Shown here piece by piece: positions 6,440 to 24,434 of a stretch of 24,434 nt of DNA. Source of the DNA: a phage; assembly GCA_021031555.1 (NCBI GenBank), contig GCA_021031555.1_4954.1; one strand, given 5' to 3'. How positions within the stretch are numbered: position 1 is the first letter of the stretch; every line of letters begins with the position of its first letter. The notes below the pieces were generated by a model. That model saw only the letters and a program-made list of their open reading frames with translations, was not told where the DNA came from and did not search any database. Made by a program: the position numbers and the translations under genes.

Positions 6440-7897
6440 ATGGCTGAATCAATTTTTAAATGTTCGCAAACACCTGCGGCTGATGTAAACGCAACACGAC
6501 TCAGTGTTGCAAAAGTCTGTGAACCTGTTTCTGGTACACCCTGGACGGTTCAACAACCGAATGAAATCAGTTCTTACAGTGCTGATATTACAAAGACTCA
6601 GCGTACACCGATCAGTACGGACCGATCTGCACGTAAAGGCACGGTAACTAACGTTGAAGTTGCGCCGGGTTTTCAGACAGACCTGACACTTGATACGTTC
6701 CGCTACTGGGGTGACGGATTCCTTTATAGTAAATGGGTCGGTGCTGGTGCAATTGATATTGACGTTACCAGTGTTGGCGGTGACGCTTATAACGTTACTA
6801 CTCTTGATGCGGCATTACCTGAAGGTGCTCTTGTTTATGCGACAGGTTTTACACTGGCTGCAAACAACGGTTTGAAAACTGTAGGCGCTGATAGTACCAC
6901 TACTGCTATCAAAGTGTCAGGGCTTACTGCCGAAGCGTCACCGCCTGCTGAAGCTCGTTTGTATCTCGTGGGGTATGCTGCAGCGTCTGGTGACATCGCT
7001 GTTAACAGTAATGGTCAGTTGACGTCTACCACCCTGGATTTTTCCACACTGGGTTTAGTACCTGGTCAGTATATTTATATTGACGGTCTAACACAGTCGG
7101 TTACCAGTAAAATGGCCCGTGTGACTATGGTTGGTGATCATGTTCTGACTCTCGCTAACAGTGAATTCACCACTGAAGAAGGTGCGGGTAAAACTGTACG
7201 TTTATTTGTTTCCAGTTTTGTTCGAAACGTTCCTGTTGATTCTGCAGAGTTCGTGAAAACTGAATACACGATGGAAGCACGTTACAACACGACACCTGTT
7301 ATTTATGAATACGCGCGTGCTGTAGCTGCAAACCAGATGACAATCAACGCACCATTGACTGAAAAAATGACAATGGATCTGACGTTTGTAGCACAGGATT
7401 TATCAGCACCGTCAGAAACCGCGCTATCGGGTTCCGGGTATATTGAATTCGTGGCTAACGAAGCGTACAACACCGTAACGAACCTGAACCGTGTACGACT
7501 GACCGGGATTGATGATAGTGGCCTCAGTACGTTCCTGAAAGACGTTACTGTCACCGTGAATAACAACGTGTCAGGTGAAAACGTGCTGGGCGTGATGGGT
7601 GCTGCGTTTACCAACATCGGTAACCTGGAAATCACGATGGAAACTGAAACGGTGATGACGGACGGTGCTGTACTGGCTGCGATCCGTAACAACGCAACAG
7701 TCAACTTTGAACTTGCCGGGGTAAACGGTGATGGTGCAATCGTGGTTAACATCCCTGCGATGACACTGGGTGACGGTTCCAAGAACCTTGCGACGGGCGA
7801 AAAAGTGAAAGTCACTGTTAGCGGTAACGCCCACGAAGAAGAGTCGATCGGTTTTATGATTGGGTTTAGCTTGTTCCCGTACTTGCCTACAGCATGA
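6440..7897 (+). CDS. putative major tail (tube) protein, unusually long
   Basis: 485-aa Thr/Val/Gly-rich protein; ACGAGG RBS; located where the tube gene is expected; followed by a strong terminator. Confidence 0.6.
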   Translation: MAESIFKCSQTPAADVNATRLSVAKVCEPVSGTPWTVQQPNEISSYSADITKTQRTPISTDRSARKGTVTNVEVAPGFQTDLTLDTFRYWGDGFLYSKWVGAGAIDIDVTSVGGDAYNVTTLDAALPEGALVYATGFTLAANNGLKTVGADSTTTAIKVSGLTAEASPPAEARLYLVGYAAASGDIAVNSNGQLTSTTLDFSTLGLVPGQYIYIDGLTQSVTSKMARVTMVGDHVLTLANSEFTTEEGAGKTVRLFVSSFVRNVPVDSAEFVKTEYTMEARYNTTPVIYEYARAVAANQMTINAPLTEKMTMDLTFVAQDLSAPSETALSGSGYIEFVANEAYNTVTNLNRVRLTGIDDSGLSTFLKDVTVTVNNNVSGENVLGVMGAAFTNIGNLEITMETETVMTDGAVLAAIRNNATVNFELAGVNGDGAIVVNIPAMTLGDGSKNLATGEKVKVTVSGNAHEEESIGFMIGFSLFPYLPTA

Positions 7898-7917
7898 CAT
7901 GGTGGATGGTAGTGATT

Positions 7918-7944
7918 GCCCCGGAACTGCCCGGGGCTTTTTTT
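7918..7944 (+). terminator. rho-independent terminator after the major tail gene
   Basis: Stem GCCCCGG / CCGGGGC (7 bp), loop AACTGC, followed by TTTTTTT. Confidence 0.75.
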
Positions 7945-8155
7945 ACACGTATTGAATCTGTTTTGGTGAAAAAGGTTTGTCGTATTTTCCATTACCTTTT
8001 AACCATTCAATCAATTGTTCACGTAAACTTTTACGGAATTCAGATCGTAAATTACTGTTGAGAAGTTTAAAGAACACAGGGAACATGTCCGGGTGGTATG
8101 CACGGAAAAGTTTTTCAACTTGTTCACGATTAACGTTATATTCCCGAACTATCAA
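7943..8155 (-). CDS. hypothetical small protein (questionable)
   Basis: 70-aa ORF on the - strand; TTG start with no clear RBS; downstream of the 125-aa moron gene. Confidence 0.3.
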   Translation of the reverse strand: MIVREYNVNREQVEKLFRAYHPDMFPVFFKLLNSNLRSEFRKSLREQLIEWLKGNGKYDKPFSPKQIQYV

Positions 8156-9514: not shown

Positions 9515-12500
9515 ATGGCACAATATCCTATTGATATTAAGTTTGATACAGGTAATGCAGATCGAAATCTTAACAATCTTAGTGACAGATTAGATCAGAC
9601 CGCGAAGGCGACGATAGCCGCGGCAACAGCTGCGAATAATTTATCAGATGCTGAACAAGCTGTTACCCAGGCCACTATACGTTTAGTACAACAACAAGCA
9701 AATAAAGCAGCAAGTGCTGCTGCTGATGCTCGTGCTACCAGAGAACAAGCACAGGAACAACTACGGTTATTAACTTCTCAAAATAAAATCAACGATAACC
9801 AAAAAAAAGCTATTGAATTAGCGCAAATTGTTGAACGTTCTTTACAGGATGAAAAGAAAGCTCTTGAAGACCTATCTTCATCTCAAAGTAGACTTAGTCA
9901 GTTACAGGAACCGTTCATACAACAAGAGATTGCAAAAAAAACAGCACAAGCACAAGCAGCAGAATCTGCAAAACGTGAGGCTGCTGCTCAACGTGAGGCT
10001 GCGAAAGCAGCGGCTGAAAAAGCAGCATCTGAACAAAAACAAAGACAAGCGTTAGATAATGCTAAAAAATCCAACGATGATTTCATAACATCATTACGAC
10101 AACAAATAGCAGTCTTAAAAACTACGGGTGTCGAGAGTGTAAAACTTCAGAATTCTTTTAAGTTGAATGCGCAAGCTACAGCAGAACAAAGAAAAGAAGT
10201 TGAAAAACTTTCACAAGAATTATACCAGTTACAGCAACCAGCAAAGAAAACATCAGGTACATTAGAAACACTTGTCACTGGTGCAAAAGCGTTTGTTGGT
10301 TTACAGATTGCAGGGTCACTTTACGACTGGGGTAAAGCGTTTGTAGATACTGCAACGAAAGTTGAACTGCTACAGAGTCGCATTAATCTGTACACATCAA
10401 CGTCGGTTGAATCACAACAGATTTTTGCGCAATTAGTACAACAGGCTAACCGTGCTGGTACAGATATTGACGCTGTGGCAAACAGTTTTCAGCGTTTTGC
10501 CGCTGCTGGTAAAGATGCCGGGATTAGTAATCAGGTTATTTTACAGTTTACCGACAACCTGCAAAAAATGGCCCGTGTATCTGGCGCATCCAGTGCTGAA
10601 GCATCTGCGGCTATTTATCAATTATCACAGGCGTTTGCATCTGGTCGTTTGCAGGGGGATGAATTCCGATCTGTGTCAGAACAGTTACCAACTGTTCTTC
10701 AGGTGCTGGCTAAACAGATGGGGGTGACCACGGGGGAACTTAAACAGTTAGGTTCTGATGGTGAAATCACTCGTGATAAACTATTGCTATTAAACAACGC
10801 GACTGATGAAATCAGCGCACAGTTCGATAAACTTCCTCGTTCTGTAGATCAGTCTGCTACTGCGTTACGTAACAACCTGTCCGTGGCTATCGCTGAACTC
10901 GATCAGCAGATTGGCGCATCTAAATTCCTGGCTAAATTCCTGGACCTGTTAGCAGGTGGTGTATCGGGTACAACAGAGTTAATAAAAGCCGCTGCAGGTG
11001 CTGACAAACTGGCACAAGCCACTAACAATCTGAACAGTGTTACCGCAAAACGCGAAGCCAATCTGAAAGAAATTGCAGATCTGGAAGCACAAATTCAGCG
11101 TGGGTATACAACACAGTCAATTGGTGGGTATACAAAATTTGTTGGTGATACAAGCGCTGCACAGAAGAAATTAAACGAACTTAAAAAACTTGATGTTCAG
11201 TTAACAAAACAACAAGCAGAAGCACAACGAGGGGTTGTTCAGGCTACTCCGTTGGGTAAGGGTGTTGCTGAAAATCTTGCAAATCAGGCAAGCACTTTAC
11301 AGGCGAGTATTACGGCTGCTCAGGCTGCCGGACGTCCTGATGCCGAATCTGCAAAACAGATTAAAAACCTGAAAGAACAGATCACTTACACCCAGGCGCT
11401 TGCTGACGGTAACTATGAACTGGCAGCAAGTCAGAAACTGGGTAATAAAGCAACTAAGGAACAGATTGCAGACTATGCTGCATTGTTGAAACAACAGGCA
11501 GAATATAAAGAAAATCAAAAGAACCAGAAGAAATTAGCCAGTGCTGAAGCATCTGCGGCTAAACGTGCACAGAAAGAACTGGAACGTAATCAGGCTGCTA
11601 ACCAGAAATACCTGAAAACGCTTCAGGATAAAATCAATGCTGGTAATTATGATGTTCAGTTAGCCCGCGAACAGGTTCAGATTGCTTTAACACAGGGGTC
11701 GTCTGTTGAACAACTTACAGCAACGTATCAGAAAGAATATCAGGTACGTCAACAGTTAACGCTGGCATCACAACAGGCAGAAGCACAGTCACGACTGAAT
11801 AAAGACGCGACTGATGCTGAACGTGCCGCTGTTGATGCACATGTGGCTGCATTGCAACGACAACAGCAGGCGCAACAGTTAGCTGGTCAGGTTTCACAGG
11901 TACAAACCGATGTACAGGGTGAGTTAAACCCGTATCAATCACAGGTTGATCAGGTTAATCAGCAGGAAGCACAACGTCTTACTGTCATACAACAAGCCCG
12001 TGAACAAGATTTAATCAACGAGCAACAATATCAGGACATGAAAACGCAGATTCAACAGGCCGGGGAACAAGCCCGTACGAATCTTGCGAATGCTAACTAC
12101 AGTCTGTTGCTACAGTCCAGTGCTGATTTTTTGGGTCAAATGGCTGCTGGTCTGGCACAATCTAAAGGTGAACAATCAAACGCGTATAAAGCGATGTTTG
12201 CACTGTCTAAAGCCTTTAGTATCGCACAGGCGAGTATTAACCTGTGGACAGCCGTTAGTCAGGCTATGGCGTTGCCGTTCCCGGCGAATATTCCGTTCAT
12301 TGCACAGGCTTTATCATACGGGACAAGCGTATTAGGTAACATTCAGTCTGTGGCTGCAACAGGTTTTGCAACGGGTGGTTATGTTAAAGGTCCGGGTACA
12401 GGTCAGAGTGACAGTATAAACGCACGTTTGAGTAATGGTGAATTTGTCAGTACCAAACAGGCTACGAGTCGTTATCGTAGCACTCTGGAAGCAATGAATC

Positions 12501-16622: not shown

Positions 16623-17027
16623 GCAGTTGGCTTGTTTTTTGTTGCAACATCTGAGCAGTGGAAAGATAAGCAGACAGGAGAAAAGAAAGAGCAGACTGAA
16701 TGGCATCGCGTGGTCATCTTCGGTAAACTTGCTGAAGTTGCAGGAGAATACCTTCGCAAAGGTTCGCAGGTTTATATCGAAGGCCAGCTACGCACTCGTA
16801 AATGGTCTGACAGCAACGGCGTAGACCGATATACCACGGAAATTGTCATTCCACAGATGGGCGGCGTAATGCAGATGCTTGGAAGTAAACGCGAAGATTC
16901 TGGTCAGCAACAACGCCAGCAATCAGGCCAACAACAGCAACGACAGCAACAGCAGCAACAAAAACTACAAAGCCCACAAGGAGGTAATGAGCCAAAGATG
17001 GATTTCGATGACGACATTCCCTTCTGA
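16623..17027 (+). pseudogene. ssb: 5'-truncated ssb (single-stranded DNA-binding protein) remnant
   Basis: The translation closely matches the E. coli SSB sequence as recalled from residue ~55 onward ([35 protein letters not shown]...DRYTTE) and ends in the canonical acidic tip MDFDDDIPF. The N-terminal part of the OB fold is absent. Homology begins 3 codons after the stop of the upstream gene, in the same frame. No RBS. Confidence 0.8.
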
Positions 17028-20501: not shown

Positions 20502-20714
20502 ATCTTCAACCGACACCTCAATCCACGATGCGGGAACCGGATATTCAGTCCGGTACATGAACAAGGATGTTCCTATCAACCCGTGTGGATCTGTTTTAAT
20601 CCCTCGCATGTTCAACAATGGAAAAAACTGTTCGCGTGTTTGTGGCAATCTTGCAAAGCGTCCTGTCGGGCGTTTAGCAGGATCCATAGGGTTGAATTCA
20701 ACGATTGTGGACAT
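20481..20714 (-). CDS. hypothetical protein
   Basis: 77 aa; ATG 20714 with GGAG 9 nt upstream; overlaps the Dam-like gene 3' end and the o-spanin 3' end. Confidence 0.4.
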   Translation of the reverse strand: MSTIVEFNPMDPAKRPTGRFARLPQTREQFFPLLNMRGIKTDPHGLIGTSLFMYRTEYPVPASWIEVSVEDLLKTVY

Positions 20715-21219
20715 AACAATAACTCCTGTACGCTTGTCGTTTTATTTTCTGATAGTCAGAAACTTTTACAGATCTCGTTTTACATTCACCGATGTGAAGT
20801 GGGTCGAAAACAAACATCACCTGTGAACGGTCATTTCCTCCTGCTGGTAACCCGGTGTCAGGATCTACAAACGCTATACGACCTTTAAACATCCATAGTT
20901 CTGAACAATGTGTCAGTGCTTTGTGAAACCAGTCTGCAGACGTCATAGCGTTCACGAGTAATAACGAACCAGTTCCCTGATAAACAGTGGTTATTATTTT
21001 ATTAACCCAGGGAGACGGATCGCTGTACGGTGGGTTACACCAGATGAACCCACCACCATTACTTTGAACAATCGAATGCCAGTCTTTATTCAGACTATCA
21101 GTGATAAACAACGAACATTTAGCGTTAGAACCATCGGTACACACATCAAGAACAAGTGGGAATTCACGAGAAACATTATCAATAAAATCCCACGGTGTTT
21201 CCCAGTTGTCTTTAGCCAT
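20698..21219 (-). CDS. DNA N6-adenine methyltransferase (phage Dam-like)
   Basis: Start taken at ATG 21219 (MAKDNWETPWDF...). Has the WETPxxxF N-terminus, LDVCTDG and a CNPPYS (NPPY) catalytic motif. Confidence 0.8.
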   Translation of the reverse strand: MAKDNWETPWDFIDNVSREFPLVLDVCTDGSNAKCSLFITDSLNKDWHSIVQSNGGGFIWCNPPYSDPSPWVNKIITTVYQGTGSLLLVNAMTSADWFHKALTHCSELWMFKGRIAFVDPDTGLPAGGNDRSQVMFVFDPLHIGECKTRSVKVSDYQKIKRQAYRSYCYVHNR

Positions 21220-21565
21220 GTTCCGGTACGCTCTCCACGCTGTAATACACAGGAATACCCAGACGTTCAGCTTCTGCAATTTCTGCTAGCGTACCAGATG
21301 AACGACGATAATCAGGAAGCACCAGAACAGCGTCACAGCGGCGCATAACTTCTAATGTGCCTGACAGGTAGTATTCAGGTTGTATATTGCGTAAACCGCC
21401 GTCAAAGTCCCACAATTCGGTGTTCTTGTGAGGGATAACCGGGAACCACCCAGGACGTTGTAAAGCAAGTCTTTTACCTGCCTGTTCAGCGCGCGACACG
21501 TTACGGGATGTTTTAAGCGCACAATCAGCACGATAAGGCCCAGCAATGTAACAGAGTTTAATCAT
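21212..21565 (-). CDS. nucleoside 2-deoxyribosyltransferase-like / DUF4406-like protein
   Basis: 117 aa from ATG 21565 (MIKLCYIAGPYR...DAVLVLPDYRRSSGTLAEIAEAERLGIPVYY). Pattern recalled from this small Rossmann-like family; not searched. Confidence 0.45.
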   Translation of the reverse strand: MIKLCYIAGPYRADCALKTSRNVSRAEQAGKRLALQRPGWFPVIPHKNTELWDFDGGLRNIQPEYYLSGTLEVMRRCDAVLVLPDYRRSSGTLAEIAEAERLGIPVYYSVESVPEHG

Positions 21566-21789
21566 GGTTGTTTTCCTGCATCTGTATAATGAGCTATGAT
21601 TTCTTCCAAACAATTTATTGTGAAGAGAAATTTTAAACCAACCCGACATTCCCAAATATGTTCTCTCAAATCTCTTGGGTCGGTGTACCCTCCGACAATA
21701 ATAAAATTTTTAATCTTTTGTTTATATTTATCGGGAACGAAGTTGAAAAAGTCACGTTTAGTCTTAATTTCCAGACTGAATCTACTCAT
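21562..21789 (-). CDS. hypothetical protein
   Basis: 75 aa; translationally coupled to both flanking genes. Confidence 0.5.
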   Translation of the reverse strand: MSRFSLEIKTKRDFFNFVPDKYKQKIKNFIIVGGYTDPRDLREHIWECRVGLKFLFTINCLEEIIAHYTDAGKQP

Positions 21790-22318
21790 GACGATTCATC
21801 CCTTCTAACATGTCCCAGATAAGTGCAACACGACGCGGATCCGTGCTGATAGTGTGTAAAGTTTCACATCCGTAATGCCACCCCCAACGAACGGATAGTT
21901 CTGACAACAGATAGCCACGAGAATTAGCCAGTTCAGCCAGTTCACCGGGTTTAAATGTTGTTGTATTAGGTTCTGTAAGAACACGAGTACCACAGATAGC
22001 GTCACTGATGCGCCACGGTTTCATCAGATCATCAACCTTATACCAGTTACTGATACTGATTTCAGACGTTCCCCAGCGTGCAGCCAGTTTAAGACGTTCC
22101 TGACGGGCCGGGAACATTGGCATCTGTGGTAAACGCAGTTGGATCTGTTCTGCAGGTTCGAACATGTCGTCGTCTGTTAAACGAAATTCACCACGGTCAT
22201 CAATATAAAAACCACGGGAACGACCATCACGGGTGAACCCGTCAACACGGTTGTAAATTTTACCGGGAGTAAAGACACCAATCGGTGAACCAGCTACAAA
22301 TTTGTGTGAAGTATGCAT
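21782..22318 (-). CDS. hypothetical protein
   Basis: 178 aa; immediately downstream of the polymerase gene on the same strand. Confidence 0.6.
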   Translation of the reverse strand: MHTSHKFVAGSPIGVFTPGKIYNRVDGFTRDGRSRGFYIDDRGEFRLTDDDMFEPAEQIQLRLPQMPMFPARQERLKLAARWGTSEISISNWYKVDDLMKPWRISDAICGTRVLTEPNTTTFKPGELAELANSRGYLLSELSVRWGWHYGCETLHTISTDPRRVALIWDMLEGMNRHE

Positions 22319-22357: not shown

Positions 22358-24214
22358 TTACCGAAGTGGTGCAACGAGTTTTTCAGCTTCTTTGATGTAA
22401 AAATCATAATTTAGCGTTGCCCGGTTAAAACGTTTCATGTCGTTGCACTCAGTGGTCAACCAACCTTTACACACTGACATGCGTCGTTCAGGCGCGTCAG
22501 GGTTCAGTTTCAGTGATTTTGCCAGCGGTGGCATGACTTTTGTCAACGGTGCACCATCTGTACTGACGTAATAACGGGTAATGTTCTGAACCTGTTTGTC
22601 ACCCCATAGTAATTTGCTGTTACGCGGTACTTTCGTCACCAACATAAAATCGTGAATGTCTTCGTGTGATGTTATAAAATCACGAATGTCTTTATTGTGT
22701 ACCAGTGCTGCTTCAGCCGCTTTTGCGACAACCTGCATACTGTGGTTTTGATGCCAACCCAGATCAACACTGTGGCAATAAGCACCTTTACGTTTAACTT
22801 TCTTACCACCTTCATAAACAGCGATGTAGTTATTTACATCGCGGATAAACATCACGTCATAAATCGCTTCTTCAAGCTGGAGTCTGGTTAATTTTTCCCA
22901 CGCGTGACGAACCTGTTCCACTTGTCCGGTAAATACTCGTGGTACGTAAACCGTAAGACCATCTGTGTTAGCCTGGATCATGGATAAACCAGGGATTTTC
23001 AGAAGTTCTTCCGCCAACATGCACAAAAGCAATTGTCCGTTAATCGTAATAGCCATTGTGTATGCGGGATCGTAAAACGGGCTGTATACGTTATTACTGT
23101 CACCGTATACACCGTTTAACGCCAGTTTTAACATTGCGTTTTCTGGTGTACCTTTCGGGTAACTGGAACGCATGTCGTAAACATTTTTATAAATGGTGCA
23201 AAATTGTTTTCCCAAATGTGCAGGGTAAAGTTCATTACTAATTGCAAGGTTTGGATAAAAACTGGCAACATCCAGATCGATGATTACATAATTTTCAGTG
23301 GACCTTATAGTTTGAGATTCAATAGACCCGTGGATACCACCCGTACCAAAATCAAACGAGAACCCGTTAATGTCTGCGCTTAAATCAGTAAACACACCTT
23401 TTGTTTCAGTGATGACTTGTTGGCGTAACCAGTTAAGAACACGATTAAATTCAGGCTGTTCAAAATGAACATAAGGGAAAATCACGCTGTTTAATGCGAT
23501 TGATGGTCTGTGCGTCTGCCGTGGTTTTCTGCTACCCGGTTCGAAACATTGAATACCTGATTTTTCAAGTTCCATAATGAAATAGTCTTTACCGATTTTC
23601 GTGTCATTATGATTCATGAAATTACGACCGTATTTAGCAGAAAGTTCACGACGAAAATCTATCAGCTTTTTACTGTGTTTATAAAACATCAAAGTCGCTT
23701 TCAAATCGTGTATCAGGTATTGACGAAGCGTATCAATTTGAGAATCGGTTAAATAAGTCCCTGGTGTAAACGGGAGGTCTTCAATGTTTTCCATTCTCAT
23801 ATTGAATTCAAGTGTTTTCAGACTTGTTCGTTTTGCCTGATTGTCGAAATGATGAATTTTATACAAATCAAGCTGGGGAACTATCCAGTCTTTTTCCCAC
23901 ACCATATGAGCAAAACGATTTTCATCACCAGCGTTAATTATCGAATCACCTTTTTTATAAATGTCTGCGTTGGTGATGTACATGATGTTGTTCAAAATAG
24001 AATGCTGAACAGGATAGTCGTAACCCAGATTGTTATAACCAACTTCTTCAGCGCGATGTTCACGCAAATATTCTGTGAACAGGTAAAAAGCCTGACGATC
24101 ATCGCGACGATGTGAAATCTCAAAAATATAAGGTGTTTCAGTTAACGCGTGAATAGCACCGAACAGAAAAACATTAGGATAGTTTTCAATATCATGAACG
24201 TAAGCATCTGACAT
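22358..24214 (-). CDS. family B DNA polymerase with 3'-5' exonuclease domain (compact)
   Basis: 618 aa. Exo I (HDIEN), Exo II (YNNLGYDY) and Exo III (YLIHD) motifs. Polymerase motif A (DLDVASFYPN), motif B (KLALNGVYG) and motif C (ANTDG). AGGA RBS. Confidence 0.75.
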   Translation of the reverse strand: MSDAYVHDIENYPNVFLFGAIHALTETPYIFEISHRRDDRQAFYLFTEYLREHRAEEVGYNNLGYDYPVQHSILNNIMYITNADIYKKGDSIINAGDENRFAHMVWEKDWIVPQLDLYKIHHFDNQAKRTSLKTLEFNMRMENIEDLPFTPGTYLTDSQIDTLRQYLIHDLKATLMFYKHSKKLIDFRRELSAKYGRNFMNHNDTKIGKDYFIMELEKSGIQCFEPGSRKPRQTHRPSIALNSVIFPYVHFEQPEFNRVLNWLRQQVITETKGVFTDLSADINGFSFDFGTGGIHGSIESQTIRSTENYVIIDLDVASFYPNLAISNELYPAHLGKQFCTIYKNVYDMRSSYPKGTPENAMLKLALNGVYGDSNNVYSPFYDPAYTMAITINGQLLLCMLAEELLKIPGLSMIQANTDGLTVYVPRVFTGQVEQVRHAWEKLTRLQLEEAIYDVMFIRDVNNYIAVYEGGKKVKRKGAYCHSVDLGWHQNHSMQVVAKAAEAALVHNKDIRDFITSHEDIHDFMLVTKVPRNSKLLWGDKQVQNITRYYVSTDGAPLTKVMPPLAKSLKLNPDAPERRMSVCKGWLTTECNDMKRFNRATLNYDFYIKEAEKLVAPLR

Positions 24215-24293
24215 AATAAAATCCTGATAAGTAAATGGGGCACTATGGCCCCATGTCTGTTTAAAGCGGTATGTCGTCCCAGTTCCAGTAACT

Positions 24294-24429
24294 ATCAGTA
24301 ACCGTTACCATTGAGAAAATTCGGGGCCGGGGTGGTCATTACCATATAACCGTTAGCGATCAGTTGTTCATCGTTCCAACCTTGCGCAATAAACTGTTCG
24401 TAAGTTGCACCACCTGCTTTTTCAGTCAT
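24294..24429 (-). CDS. small ORF or 3' end of a gene continuing beyond the window edge
   Basis: Frame open to the window edge; an ATG at 24429 would give 44 aa; followed by a palindromic hairpin at 24235-24254. Confidence 0.2.
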
Positions 24430-24434
24430 TACTT

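Follow-up and report, generated by a model that had tools for sequence, protein, structure and literature searches.

A compact family B DNA polymerase of a 9NA-like Escherichia coli siphovirus, probably primer-dependent and related to the crAss-like phage enzymes

How does a family B DNA polymerase (PolB) of 618 aa begin a DNA chain, and does its small size say anything about the way in which it is primed? The question is raised by a gene in a 24.4-kb stretch of phage DNA (24,434 nucleotides, here called the window), which is part of a genome of ~57 kb. The first-pass annotation of this stretch described the product as a family B polymerase with motifs ExoI, ExoII and ExoIII and motifs A, B and C, placed it at the small end of the family and, as small enzymes of this kind are often protein-primed or otherwise atypical, considered the priming mode to be open. 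The description is borne out by the present analysis, with motif C in a variant form, NTDG; the step from small size to unusual priming is not, and the gene very probably encodes the replicative, proofreading, primer-dependent PolB of a virulent 9NA-like (Sashavirus/Nonanavirus) E. coli siphovirus.

The coordinates of the gene, its motifs and its neighbours are collected in Table 1. The chain follows the order 3'-5' exonuclease domain, palm, short fingers, thumb. D8 of ExoI is invariant in alignment A2 and E10 nearly invariant in the family alignment A1, and the DEDDy 3'-5' exonuclease site is complete. The polymerase active site reads as intact, with D315, the steric gate Y320, K363/N367/Y370 and D418 all present. 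Motif A aligns with DFRSLYPS of the archaeal PolBs and with motif A of E. coli Pol II, and motif B with KILANSFYG (archaeal PolBs) and KIIMNAFYG (Pol II). Motif C retains its second Asp (D418) but has Asn (N416) in place of the first. The variant is a property of the family, NTDG being found in 266 of the 267 members examined and invariant also in crAss cr8_1, BRET and AH03, whilst D-V-N-[NSA]-Y is present in 240 of 268 members; the combination of ANTDG and NNY is common to the window protein, 9NA, RHph_Y52, AH03, BRET and cr8_1 in A2. As motif C and the KxY position are both non-canonical, we infer activity from this family-wide conservation and not from canonical residues.

Table 1. Positions of the polymerase gene, its motifs and neighbouring features in the window.
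Feature	Positions	Strand	Remarks
PolB gene, 618 aa, complete	22358..24214	(-)	ATG start; stop codon 22358-22360
ExoI, D8-I-E10	24185..24193	(-)	motif reading; 7 residues before motif
ExoII, N61-N-L-G-Y-D66	24017..24034	(-)	N61, D66 invariant in A1, A2
ExoIII, Y166-L-I-H-D170	23705..23719	(-)	Y166, D170 invariant in A1, A2
Motif A, D313-L-D315-V-A-S-F-Y320-P(-N)	23252..23278	(-)	D315 catalytic, Y320 steric gate
Motif B, K363-LAL-N367-GV-Y370-G371	23102..23128	(-)	second short finger helix
Motif C variant, Q414-A-N416-T-D418-G419	22958..22975	(-)	NTDG in place of DTDS
N461-N-Y463 at KxY position, Lys to Asn	22826..22834	(-)	aligned with KKKY, archaeal PolB
Shine-Dalgarno-like AGGA, 7 nt 5' of PolB ATG	24222..24225	(-)	direct sequence reading
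GC-rich hairpin, 7 bp stem, between SSB and PolB genes	24235..24254	(-)	
gp2.5-like ssDNA-binding/annealing protein gene, 3' end, cut by window edge	24295..24434	(-)	
178-aa protein gene, phrog_19205, downstream of PolB, co-oriented	21782..22318	(-)	
Bacterial-type OB-fold SSB, second SSB	16632..17027	(+)	phrog_44 E 7.5e-41

Standard model libraries are of little help with this protein. A Pfam scan gave no match, even at E<=1, the sole result of the NCBIfam scan was Pol II at E 0.015, well short of the cut-off, and a single-sequence search of the PDB gave marginal matches (best E 0.013); with hits as marginal as these, structure prediction and a fold search were needed for a firm assignment to family B. 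The predicted structure has the PolB fold (pLDDT 96), with exonuclease, palm, fingers and thumb in a single chain, and every full-length structural match of the model is a PolB (residue numbers of the model and of A1 are those of the protein minus 1, the initiator Met being omitted). A direct homologue search returned 120 near-identical sequences, and diversity was obtained by a second query with the polymerase of Rhizobium phage RHph_Y52 (49-52% identical). When the A1 family profile was run against all PDB sequences the best E value was 7e-4 and only primer-dependent PolBs were matched, among them E. coli Pol II, T4/RB69, archaeal PolBs and Pol epsilon, but not phi29 or PRD1, phi29 being absent even at E<=10. 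The first-pass annotation had named two findings that would overturn it, membership of family A and origin as part of a larger, split gene, and neither applies: all three polymerase motifs are those of family B, the protein aligns over its entire length with phrog_1252 and gp65 of Salmonella phage 9NA, and the gene has its own ribosome-binding site, start and stop between unrelated flanking genes.

The small size, which was correctly noted at the outset (618 aa, compared with 783 in Pol II, 898 in T4, 572 in phi29 and 553 in PRD1), is explained by the absence of an N-terminal domain of ~110-155 residues together with short fingers. This domain is one of three common PolB domains (Kazlauskas 2020, PMC7544198). 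Its absence follows from the position of ExoI, which begins at residue 8 (156 in E. coli Pol II, 112 in T4), and in the model the first exonuclease strand starts from model residue 3; most of the clade to which the enzyme belongs has no such domain either. The spacing from motif A to motif B is 48 residues, as against 74 in Pol II, 149 in T4, 134 in phi29 and 120 in PRD1, and the model has two short finger helices only in this interval. From motif B to motif C the spacing is 53 residues, similar to the 52 of Pol II and shorter than the 73 of phi29 and 88 of PRD1, and this interval is occupied in the model by a single helix and a loop. Compared with Pol II and the archaeal and eukaryotic primer-dependent PolBs (Tgo, 9°N, KOD, Pol alpha, delta and epsilon, RB69/T4 gp43), the window PolB lacks the N-terminal domain and has much shorter fingers, carries NTDG and not DTDS, has lost the KxY lysine and is without the QLGLF-type C-terminal clamp-binding tail. 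The suggestion that the enzyme is "otherwise atypical" holds only in a limited sense: the missing domain, NTDG and NNY do depart from the usual pattern, but they are traits of the entire clade, which has already been described.

The clade in question can be recognised from its closest distant relatives. When A1 was compared by hhalign with the PolB of crAss phage cr8_1 the probability was 100% (E 4e-42, 581 columns), whereas for E. coli Pol II it was 75% (E 2.5e-5), for T4 14%, for PRD1 4% and for phi29 0.3%; a crAss-phage PolB was also found by tblastn (E 1e-28), and crAss-like PolBs are among the structural neighbours in BFVD. The likeness to cr8_1 consists of full-length homology, NTDG, NNY and an ExoI motif at about residue 8; the latter was located in cr8_1 by regular expression (D8-L-E10), as the N-terminus of cr8_1 is misaligned in A2, a MAFFT alignment. 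The two proteins are, however, only ~25% identical, and that of cr8_1, at 757 aa, is longer: it carries insertions in the region from exonuclease to palm and is extended at the C-terminus. The crAss-like PolBs have been described as a divergent part of the EpsilonN-like group, set apart by MotifC and KxY (Kazlauskas 2020, PMC7544198), which matches the NTDG and NNY of the window PolB, and the entry for the 9NA orthologue in Table S2 of the same work bears the label PolBmain. Judged by profile and motif similarity, the window PolB would appear to belong to a large crAss-like branch of the main PolB assemblage.

The phage itself is readily placed. As the first-pass annotation held, the genome is of the siphovirus type, with PHROG matches to major head, tape measure, tail tip, tailspike and a lysis cassette, and at the DNA level the PolB gene shares 96-97% identity with its counterparts in Sashavirus/Nonanavirus phages. 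Identities over the individual phages Sasha, Sergei and Solent and the Escherichia phages PDP46, PJ16, AVIO78A and KarinMuster/Bas82 range from 95.5 to 97.2%, the counterparts at 96-97% in PJ16, PDP46, Bas82 and Sasha are annotated "DNA polymerase", the PDP46 protein is 99.5% identical and 9NA gp65 is 57% identical and syntenic. Most records of 9NA-like phages call the gene a (putative) DNA polymerase, and it is the same gene with nothing of substance to separate it from theirs: already known and ordinary. GenBank and two published polymerase surveys already contain the gene, its family B assignment and the phage group, and as a discovery the locus matters little. In E. coli assemblies at NCBI, however, the same protein is named "hypothetical protein", a label explained by the failure of the Pfam and NCBIfam models to detect it.

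The immediate neighbourhood of the gene is that of a replication module. Directly upstream, in the same orientation, the gp2.5-like gene ends (stop codon 24295-24297; translation end ...PNFLNGNGY*); it is syntenic with Bas82_0067 and PDP46_0072, both annotated "Gp2.5-like", and the Bas82 protein matches phrog_7011 at E 1e-100. The hairpin between the two genes may be a terminator- or attenuator-like element, and a "terminator" feature is annotated under the matching DNA in Sasha and Sergei. The phrog_19205 gene occupies the same place in 9NA, Bas82 and PDP46. For the remainder of the module complete relatives were consulted, and the data on primase, helicase and packaging are from these phages and not from the 24-kb contig. 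In PDP46, Bas82 and 9NA the order is nuclease, gp2.5-like SSB, PolB, with an SF2 helicase, a DEDD exonuclease and a primase on the opposite strand. The last is a 784-aa NrS-1-like primase-polymerase/SF3 helicase encoded 6-8 kb from PolB, and thus outside the window, with the domains NrS-1 HBD, D5_N and DUF5906; among its matches are the NrS-1 Prim/Pol domain and 7OLA, the full-length primase-helicase chain, with E values from 1e-31 to 3e-34. The first-pass annotation had proposed a search of the rest of the genome for a terminal protein or primase; the relatives encode a primase, and neither the annotation of Bas82 nor the examined parts of PDP46 and 9NA include a terminal protein.

These results bear directly on protein priming of the phi29/PRD1 type, in which replication of a linear genome would start at its ends from a terminal protein. 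The window PolB does resemble phi29 gp2, PRD1 P1 and the primer-independent PolBs (piPolBs) in size and in an exonuclease domain that begins at the N-terminus. However, the TPR1 and TPR2 insertions are absent by inter-motif spacing, which leaves no room for them, and by predicted structure; the thumb and C-terminal region is Pol II-like at ~200 residues, compared with ~120 in phi29; and there is no significant profile similarity to these enzymes, the kinship being with primer-dependent PolBs. The genome argues in the same direction. In phi29 and PRD1 the terminal protein gene adjoins that of the polymerase, whereas the neighbours here encode the gp2.5-like SSB and the phrog_19205 protein, and a genome of ~57 kb with a primase and two helicases possesses what is typically absent from protein-primed systems (PMC4889955). 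The first-pass annotation saw neither a terminal protein nor an inverted terminal repeat in the 24.4-kb window, and this holds: no inverted repeat pairs the two ends, and only short scattered inverted matches are found within it. Headful packaging, with a pac fragment and an assembly that is circular, has been described for 9NA (PMC4153490), and Sergei is presumed to be circularly permuted (PMC8273493), the packaging evidence being that of Casjens 2014 and Xie 2021; headful packaging from a pac site implies that there are no fixed genome ends. The Bas82 record is circular, and a 58-kb metagenome contig with a near-identical polymerase starts within the SSB gene, 277 nt ahead of that for the polymerase, which is the sort of arbitrary break that a circular assembly would be expected to give. 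Protein priming is thus extremely improbable for this enzyme.

A de novo start of the DNA chain, as by a piPolB-like enzyme, would be compatible with a compact protein without an N-terminal domain and with a non-canonical motif C and KxY. Nevertheless it appears very improbable. In Kazlauskas 2020 (PMC7544198) piPolBs are placed with protein-primed PolBs and the 9NA orthologue elsewhere, in PolBmain, and the family of the window PolB has no detectable affinity to the cluster formed by the former two. The context, moreover, is a virulent tailed phage with a dedicated primase-polymerase/helicase and not a pipolin-type element.

A different question is whether the polymerase, even if primer-dependent, copies the phage genome at all. 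It could be an accessory enzyme of repair or gap filling, with bulk replication left to host Pol III, recruited via the second, bacterial-type SSB of the phage. The translation of this SSB ends in DFDDDIPF. In E. coli, an SSB tail of the DDDIPF type docks host replisome proteins, and the phage SSB is a possible replisome accessory, with a putative link to PolB, through which the host replisome may be involved. By profile the nearest cellular relative is a repair enzyme, E. coli Pol II, and neither clamp nor clamp loader is annotated in Bas82. Against these points, Bas82 has no other annotated DNA polymerase, and PolB lies within a replication module with the primase-helicase and gp2.5-like SSB, is both conserved and syntenic between 9NA and the Sasha-like phages and has a full proofreading site. 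In addition, the Sashavirus/Nonanavirus PolB has been treated as a phage DNA polymerase that is exchangeable in situ with PolA (Yutin et al. 2024, PMC11348598), and such a swap in related phages is what would be expected of a replicase. An accessory role is accordingly improbable, and a replicative, primer-dependent PolB is the reading that is followed below.

On that reading, the 784-aa primase-polymerase/SF3 helicase would open the fork and synthesise short primers, which PolB would extend and proofread, whilst the gp2.5-like SSB would coat the displaced strand. The same SSB, together with the DUF2800 PD-(D/E)XK nuclease, could then promote strand annealing and so give rise to the concatemers for headful packaging from the pac site. 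Processivity is the weakest step of the scheme. More distant PolB homologues adjoin a beta-clamp gene, but the 9NA-like phage group is without one, so that the polymerase probably owes its processivity to contacts with the SSB or helicase, or is processive by itself. The window protein has no C-terminal beta-clamp-binding motif, a QDLF/GDLF tail being found only in the Rhizobium-phage subgroup. An internal QLLLCM was considered as a clamp-binding motif and rejected, as it lies within a helix (model residues 382-403).

NrS-1 polymerase makes DNA primers in vitro. The clade might accordingly run an RNA-free, clamp-free replisome, in which an NrS-1-like primase-polymerase supplies DNA primers that PolB, with its NTDG and NNY variants and no N-terminal domain, extends processively and RNase H-type primer removal would not be needed, although we regard this as rather unlikely. 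All that speaks for it is the homology of the primase and the lack of annotated clamp, RNase H and ligase genes in Bas82.

A full-text literature search, which was not exhaustive, found no biochemical studies of the 9NA-like/crAss-like PolB clade. The family to which the enzyme belongs, to which Pfam and NCBIfam are blind and whose members are often recorded as "hypothetical protein", comprises no fewer than 4,845 clusters (50% identity) in the searched library, and enzymology of the PolB from an easily grown E. coli phage would inform the replication of the crAss phages too.

The polymerase gene has its own start codon, preceded by 7 nt by an AGGA ribosome-binding site, and is flanked by separate genes; it is therefore a whole, stand-alone gene rather than one part of a split one. 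Every motif claimed in the first-pass annotation, that is, three exonuclease motifs and motifs A, B and C, was located in the protein, and both the proofreading and the polymerase sites are predicted to be intact. The protein departs from the canonical family B motifs in two respects: NTDG replaces DTDS in motif C, and the KxY lysine site is N461-N-Y463. The hairpin ahead of the gene may act as a terminator or attenuator inside an apparent single operon; the Sasha and Sergei annotations carry a 'terminator' at this site.

Features of the window (nucleotide positions) and motifs of the polymerase (residues)
Feature	Position	Strand	Remarks
Polymerase ORF, 618 aa, ATG start	22358-24214	-	
GC-rich hairpin, 7 bp	24235-24254		in 80-nt gap between gp2.5-like SSB and polymerase genes
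gp2.5-like SSB gene, part	24295-24434		
Stop of upstream gene	24295-24297		
Start of downstream gene	22318		
Deoxyribosyltransferase-like/DUF4406 gene	21212-21655	-	
NinX-like ORF	21562-21789	-	
Dam-type methyltransferase	20698-21279	-	
Tailspike/tail fibre gene, 673 aa	17060-19081	-	
Bacterial-type OB-fold SSB, ends DFDDDIPF	16632-17027	+	phrog_44; between tail-tip and tailspike genes
229-aa ORF	7303-7992	-	antisense to tail gene
Tail gene	6440-7897		
ExoI	D8-I-E10		protein sequence motif
ExoII	N61/62...Y65-D66		protein sequence motif
ExoIII	Y166...D170		protein sequence motif
Motif A	D313-L-D315-VAS-F-Y320-P-N		protein sequence motif
Motif B	K363-LAL-N367-GV-Y370-G371		protein sequence motif
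Motif C	Q-A-N416-T-D418-G		protein sequence motif

A Pfam scan of the protein returned nothing at E<=1 and NCBIfam returned Pol II alone (E 0.015; the cut-off is 570 bits), while PHROGs placed it in phrog_1252, 'DNA polymerase' (E 2e-215). Pfam and NCBIfam, both curated HMM libraries, hardly detect the family, which explains why the identical protein goes under the name 'hypothetical protein' in E. coli assemblies at NCBI. An AlphaFold2 model (mean pLDDT 96.3, pTM 0.92) was built from A1, an alignment of 97 diverse homologues with 45-58% identity to the query; its numbering is that of the protein minus 1, the initiator Met being absent from A1 and the model input. In the PDB, Foldseek paired it with PolBs of archaea, with E. 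coli Pol II and Pol alpha, and with the ASFV and HSV polymerases (E about 1e-13, probability 1.00). Membership of family B is secure. Family A is excluded by the motifs and fold matches, and for a complete, stand-alone gene with a PolB fold there is practically no chance that it encodes a family A enzyme or a fragment.

The compactness noted at first pass was likewise borne out. ExoI lies at residue 8 (Pol II, residue 156; T4, residue 112), and the N-terminal domain, one of three common PolB domains (Kazlauskas et al., PMC7544198), is therefore absent; this absence and the much shortened fingers (48 residues from motif A to B) account for the small size. Most of the family is built alike: of the 233 members in which ExoI could be located, 207 have it among their first 20 residues, and members examined span 455 to 950 aa (median 640). 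The family has at least 4,845 cluster representatives at 50% identity (E<=1e-3) in a library of 1.84 billion proteins, and 969 INPHARED phage records contain a match. In the Rheinheimera Barba phages, Pseudomonas phiPMW, Klebsiella RCIP0081 and Flavobacterium FPSV-D5 the homologue appears as two to three separate tblastn pieces over 2.1-2.8 kb, in phiPMW overlapping several 'hypothetical protein' features; these may reflect inteins, introns or homing-endonuclease insertions.

Five lines of evidence on the branch of family B were concordant: profile searches, hhalign, inter-motif spacing, published classification and viral structural neighbours. Searched against all PDB sequences, the A1 profile matched solely primer-dependent PolBs (T4/RB69, archaeal, Pol epsilon, Pol II, Pol alpha), with no match to phi29 at E<=10. 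Protein-primed PolBs are defined by two insertions, TPR1 separating motif A from the fingers and TPR2 separating motif B from motif C (roles summarised in PMC4889955); the spacing in our protein leaves no room for either, and in the model these intervals hold just a pair of short finger helices and a single long helix.

hhalign of the A1 family profile against reference PolBs (all targets run by the same method), and residue spacing between motifs
Protein	Probability	E	Columns	A to B	B to C	C to C-terminus
Window protein				48	53	202
crAss phage cr8_1	100%	4e-42	581			
E. coli Pol II	75%	2.5e-5		74	52	238
T4 gp43	14%	0.0019		149	61	280
PRD1	4%	0.0095		120	88	125
phi29	0.3%	0.19		134	73	119

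The 9NA orthologue (UniRef50_A0A060D1M7, 633 aa) is classed as 'PolBmain', outside the pPolB+piPolB cluster (Supplementary Table S2, Kazlauskas et al., 2020, PMC7544198), which makes a primer-independent PolB very improbable. In BFVD the closest structural neighbours are PolBs of phages, among them crAss-like, Leuconostoc, Lactococcus P087 and Enterococcus enzymes; T4-like and eukaryotic-virus PolBs come next, and the top 50 contain no named phi29- or PRD1-type polymerase. ANTDG and NNY are invariant in the window protein, 9NA, Rhizobium phage RHph_Y52, Erwinia phage AH03, Nonagvirus BRET and crAss cr8_1, and NTDG occurs in 266 of 267 family members examined, fitting the account of Kazlauskas et al. 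(2020, PMC7544198), in which crAss-like PolBs are divergent EpsilonN-like members with deviating MotifC and KxY. Profile and motif evidence would thus assign the protein to this named group.

The phage is one of the 9NA-like siphoviruses (Sashavirus/Nonanavirus). Its window encodes major head, tape measure, tail-tip and tailspike proteins and a lysis cassette, and the polymerase gene shares 95.5-97.2% DNA identity with Escherichia phages PJ16, PDP46 (99.5% at the protein level), KarinMuster/Bas82 and AVIO78A and Salmonella phages Sasha, Sergei and Solent, and 80-84% with FSL SP-062/SP069 and a group of Klebsiella phages. The syntenic gp65 of Salmonella phage 9NA has 57% protein identity. Siphovirus morphology is reported for 9NA (PMC4153490) and Sergei (PMC8273493), and Bas82 was assigned to the group in the BASEL paper (PMC11990801). 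Most of these phage records already label the gene '(putative) DNA polymerase', and the PolB clade to which it belongs has been described before. What remains of some value is that domain databases (Pfam, NCBIfam) miss so large a family, and that a full-text literature search, which was not exhaustive, found no biochemical study of the clade.

The window covers 24.4 kb of a roughly 57-kb genome, and the replication module was therefore read from complete relatives. PDP46, Bas82 and 9NA share it: on the polymerase strand, a gene of unknown function, a DUF2800 PD-(D/E)XK nuclease, a gp2.5-like SSB/annealing protein and PolB; on the opposite strand, an SF2 helicase, an Rv2179c-like DEDD exonuclease, a small nuclease and a 784-aa 'primase'. 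The latter comprises an NrS-1 polymerase helix-bundle domain, D5_N and a DUF5906 SF3-helicase region, and has matches (E 1e-31 to 3e-34) both to Prim/Pol domain structures of NrS-1 and to 7OLA, a full-length primase-helicase chain; NrS-1 polymerase synthesizes primers de novo through its Prim/Pol and HBD domains (PMC7102993, PMC8718748). The Bas82 annotation lists a single DNA polymerase and neither a terminal protein nor a clamp. The 9NA assembly is circular and the only specific end fragment reported is the pac fragment, i.e., pac-site headful packaging (Casjens et al., PMC4153490), and Sergei is presumed permuted and terminally redundant (PMC8273493). No inverted repeat pairs the two window ends.

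The priming mode, left open at first pass, need not have been: the module of the relatives, the lack of TPR1 and TPR2, the profiles and headful packaging in 9NA all bear on it. A conventional primase-dependent replisome making concatemers fits the module and packaging data of the relatives, and end-initiated, protein-primed replication does not; with hhalign probabilities so low for phi29 and PRD1 and no terminal protein annotated in Bas82, a protein-primed PolB is extremely improbable. In the primase-dependent scheme the primase-helicase would open the fork and prime, PolB would elongate and proofread the primers, and the gp2.5-like SSB and DUF2800 nuclease would aid strand annealing and concatemer formation. 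An accessory, non-replicative role for the polymerase is unlikely: Yutin et al. (2024, PMC11348598) treat the Sashavirus/Nonanavirus PolB as the phage DNA polymerase, and the in-situ PolB-to-PolA swap that they document in the same genome clade favours a replicative role.

A 58-kb metagenome contig carrying the polymerase begins inside the SSB gene, an arbitrary break. The start of this independent contig lies 277 nt (contig positions 1-277), and the window end 220 nt, upstream of the polymerase ATG, and both breaks fall within the SSB gene. Many contigs carrying the polymerase span 23.4-24.5 kb, and the SSB product varies from 316 to 343 aa among relatives; together these observations suggest that assemblies repeatedly break here or that the stretch is variable.

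A beta-clamp gene lies immediately upstream of PolB in two distant homologues, BRET (6811-7803) and AH03 (6901-7932), and (L/Q/G)DLF-type C-terminal tails occur in AH03 (...LLDLFD), cr8_1 (...NDLFDNEEEQ) and the Rhizobium-phage subgroup, whereas the 9NA-like phages have neither clamp gene nor such a tail. The short, beta-clamp-binding-like extension with QDLF, HDLF or GDLF is confined to that subgroup (P0121-P0140) and is absent from the window protein. The phage has two SSBs, gp2.5-like and bacterial-type. In E. coli, an SSB tail of the DFDDDIPF type docks host replisome proteins, so some use of host factors by the phage is possible.

The DUF4406 gene is three genes downstream of the polymerase gene, in a minus-strand cluster with the NinX-like ORF and the methyltransferase; in RHph_Y52 its counterpart (9975-10331) is directly downstream. 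The 229-aa ORF has no PHROG match and is probably no real gene. Only the N-terminal part of the tailspike/tail fibre is common to many other tail fibre families; PDP46, the isolate with the most similar polymerase, is reported to be plasmid-dependent and carries a fibre of 808 aa, and the host receptor of the present phage may therefore differ.
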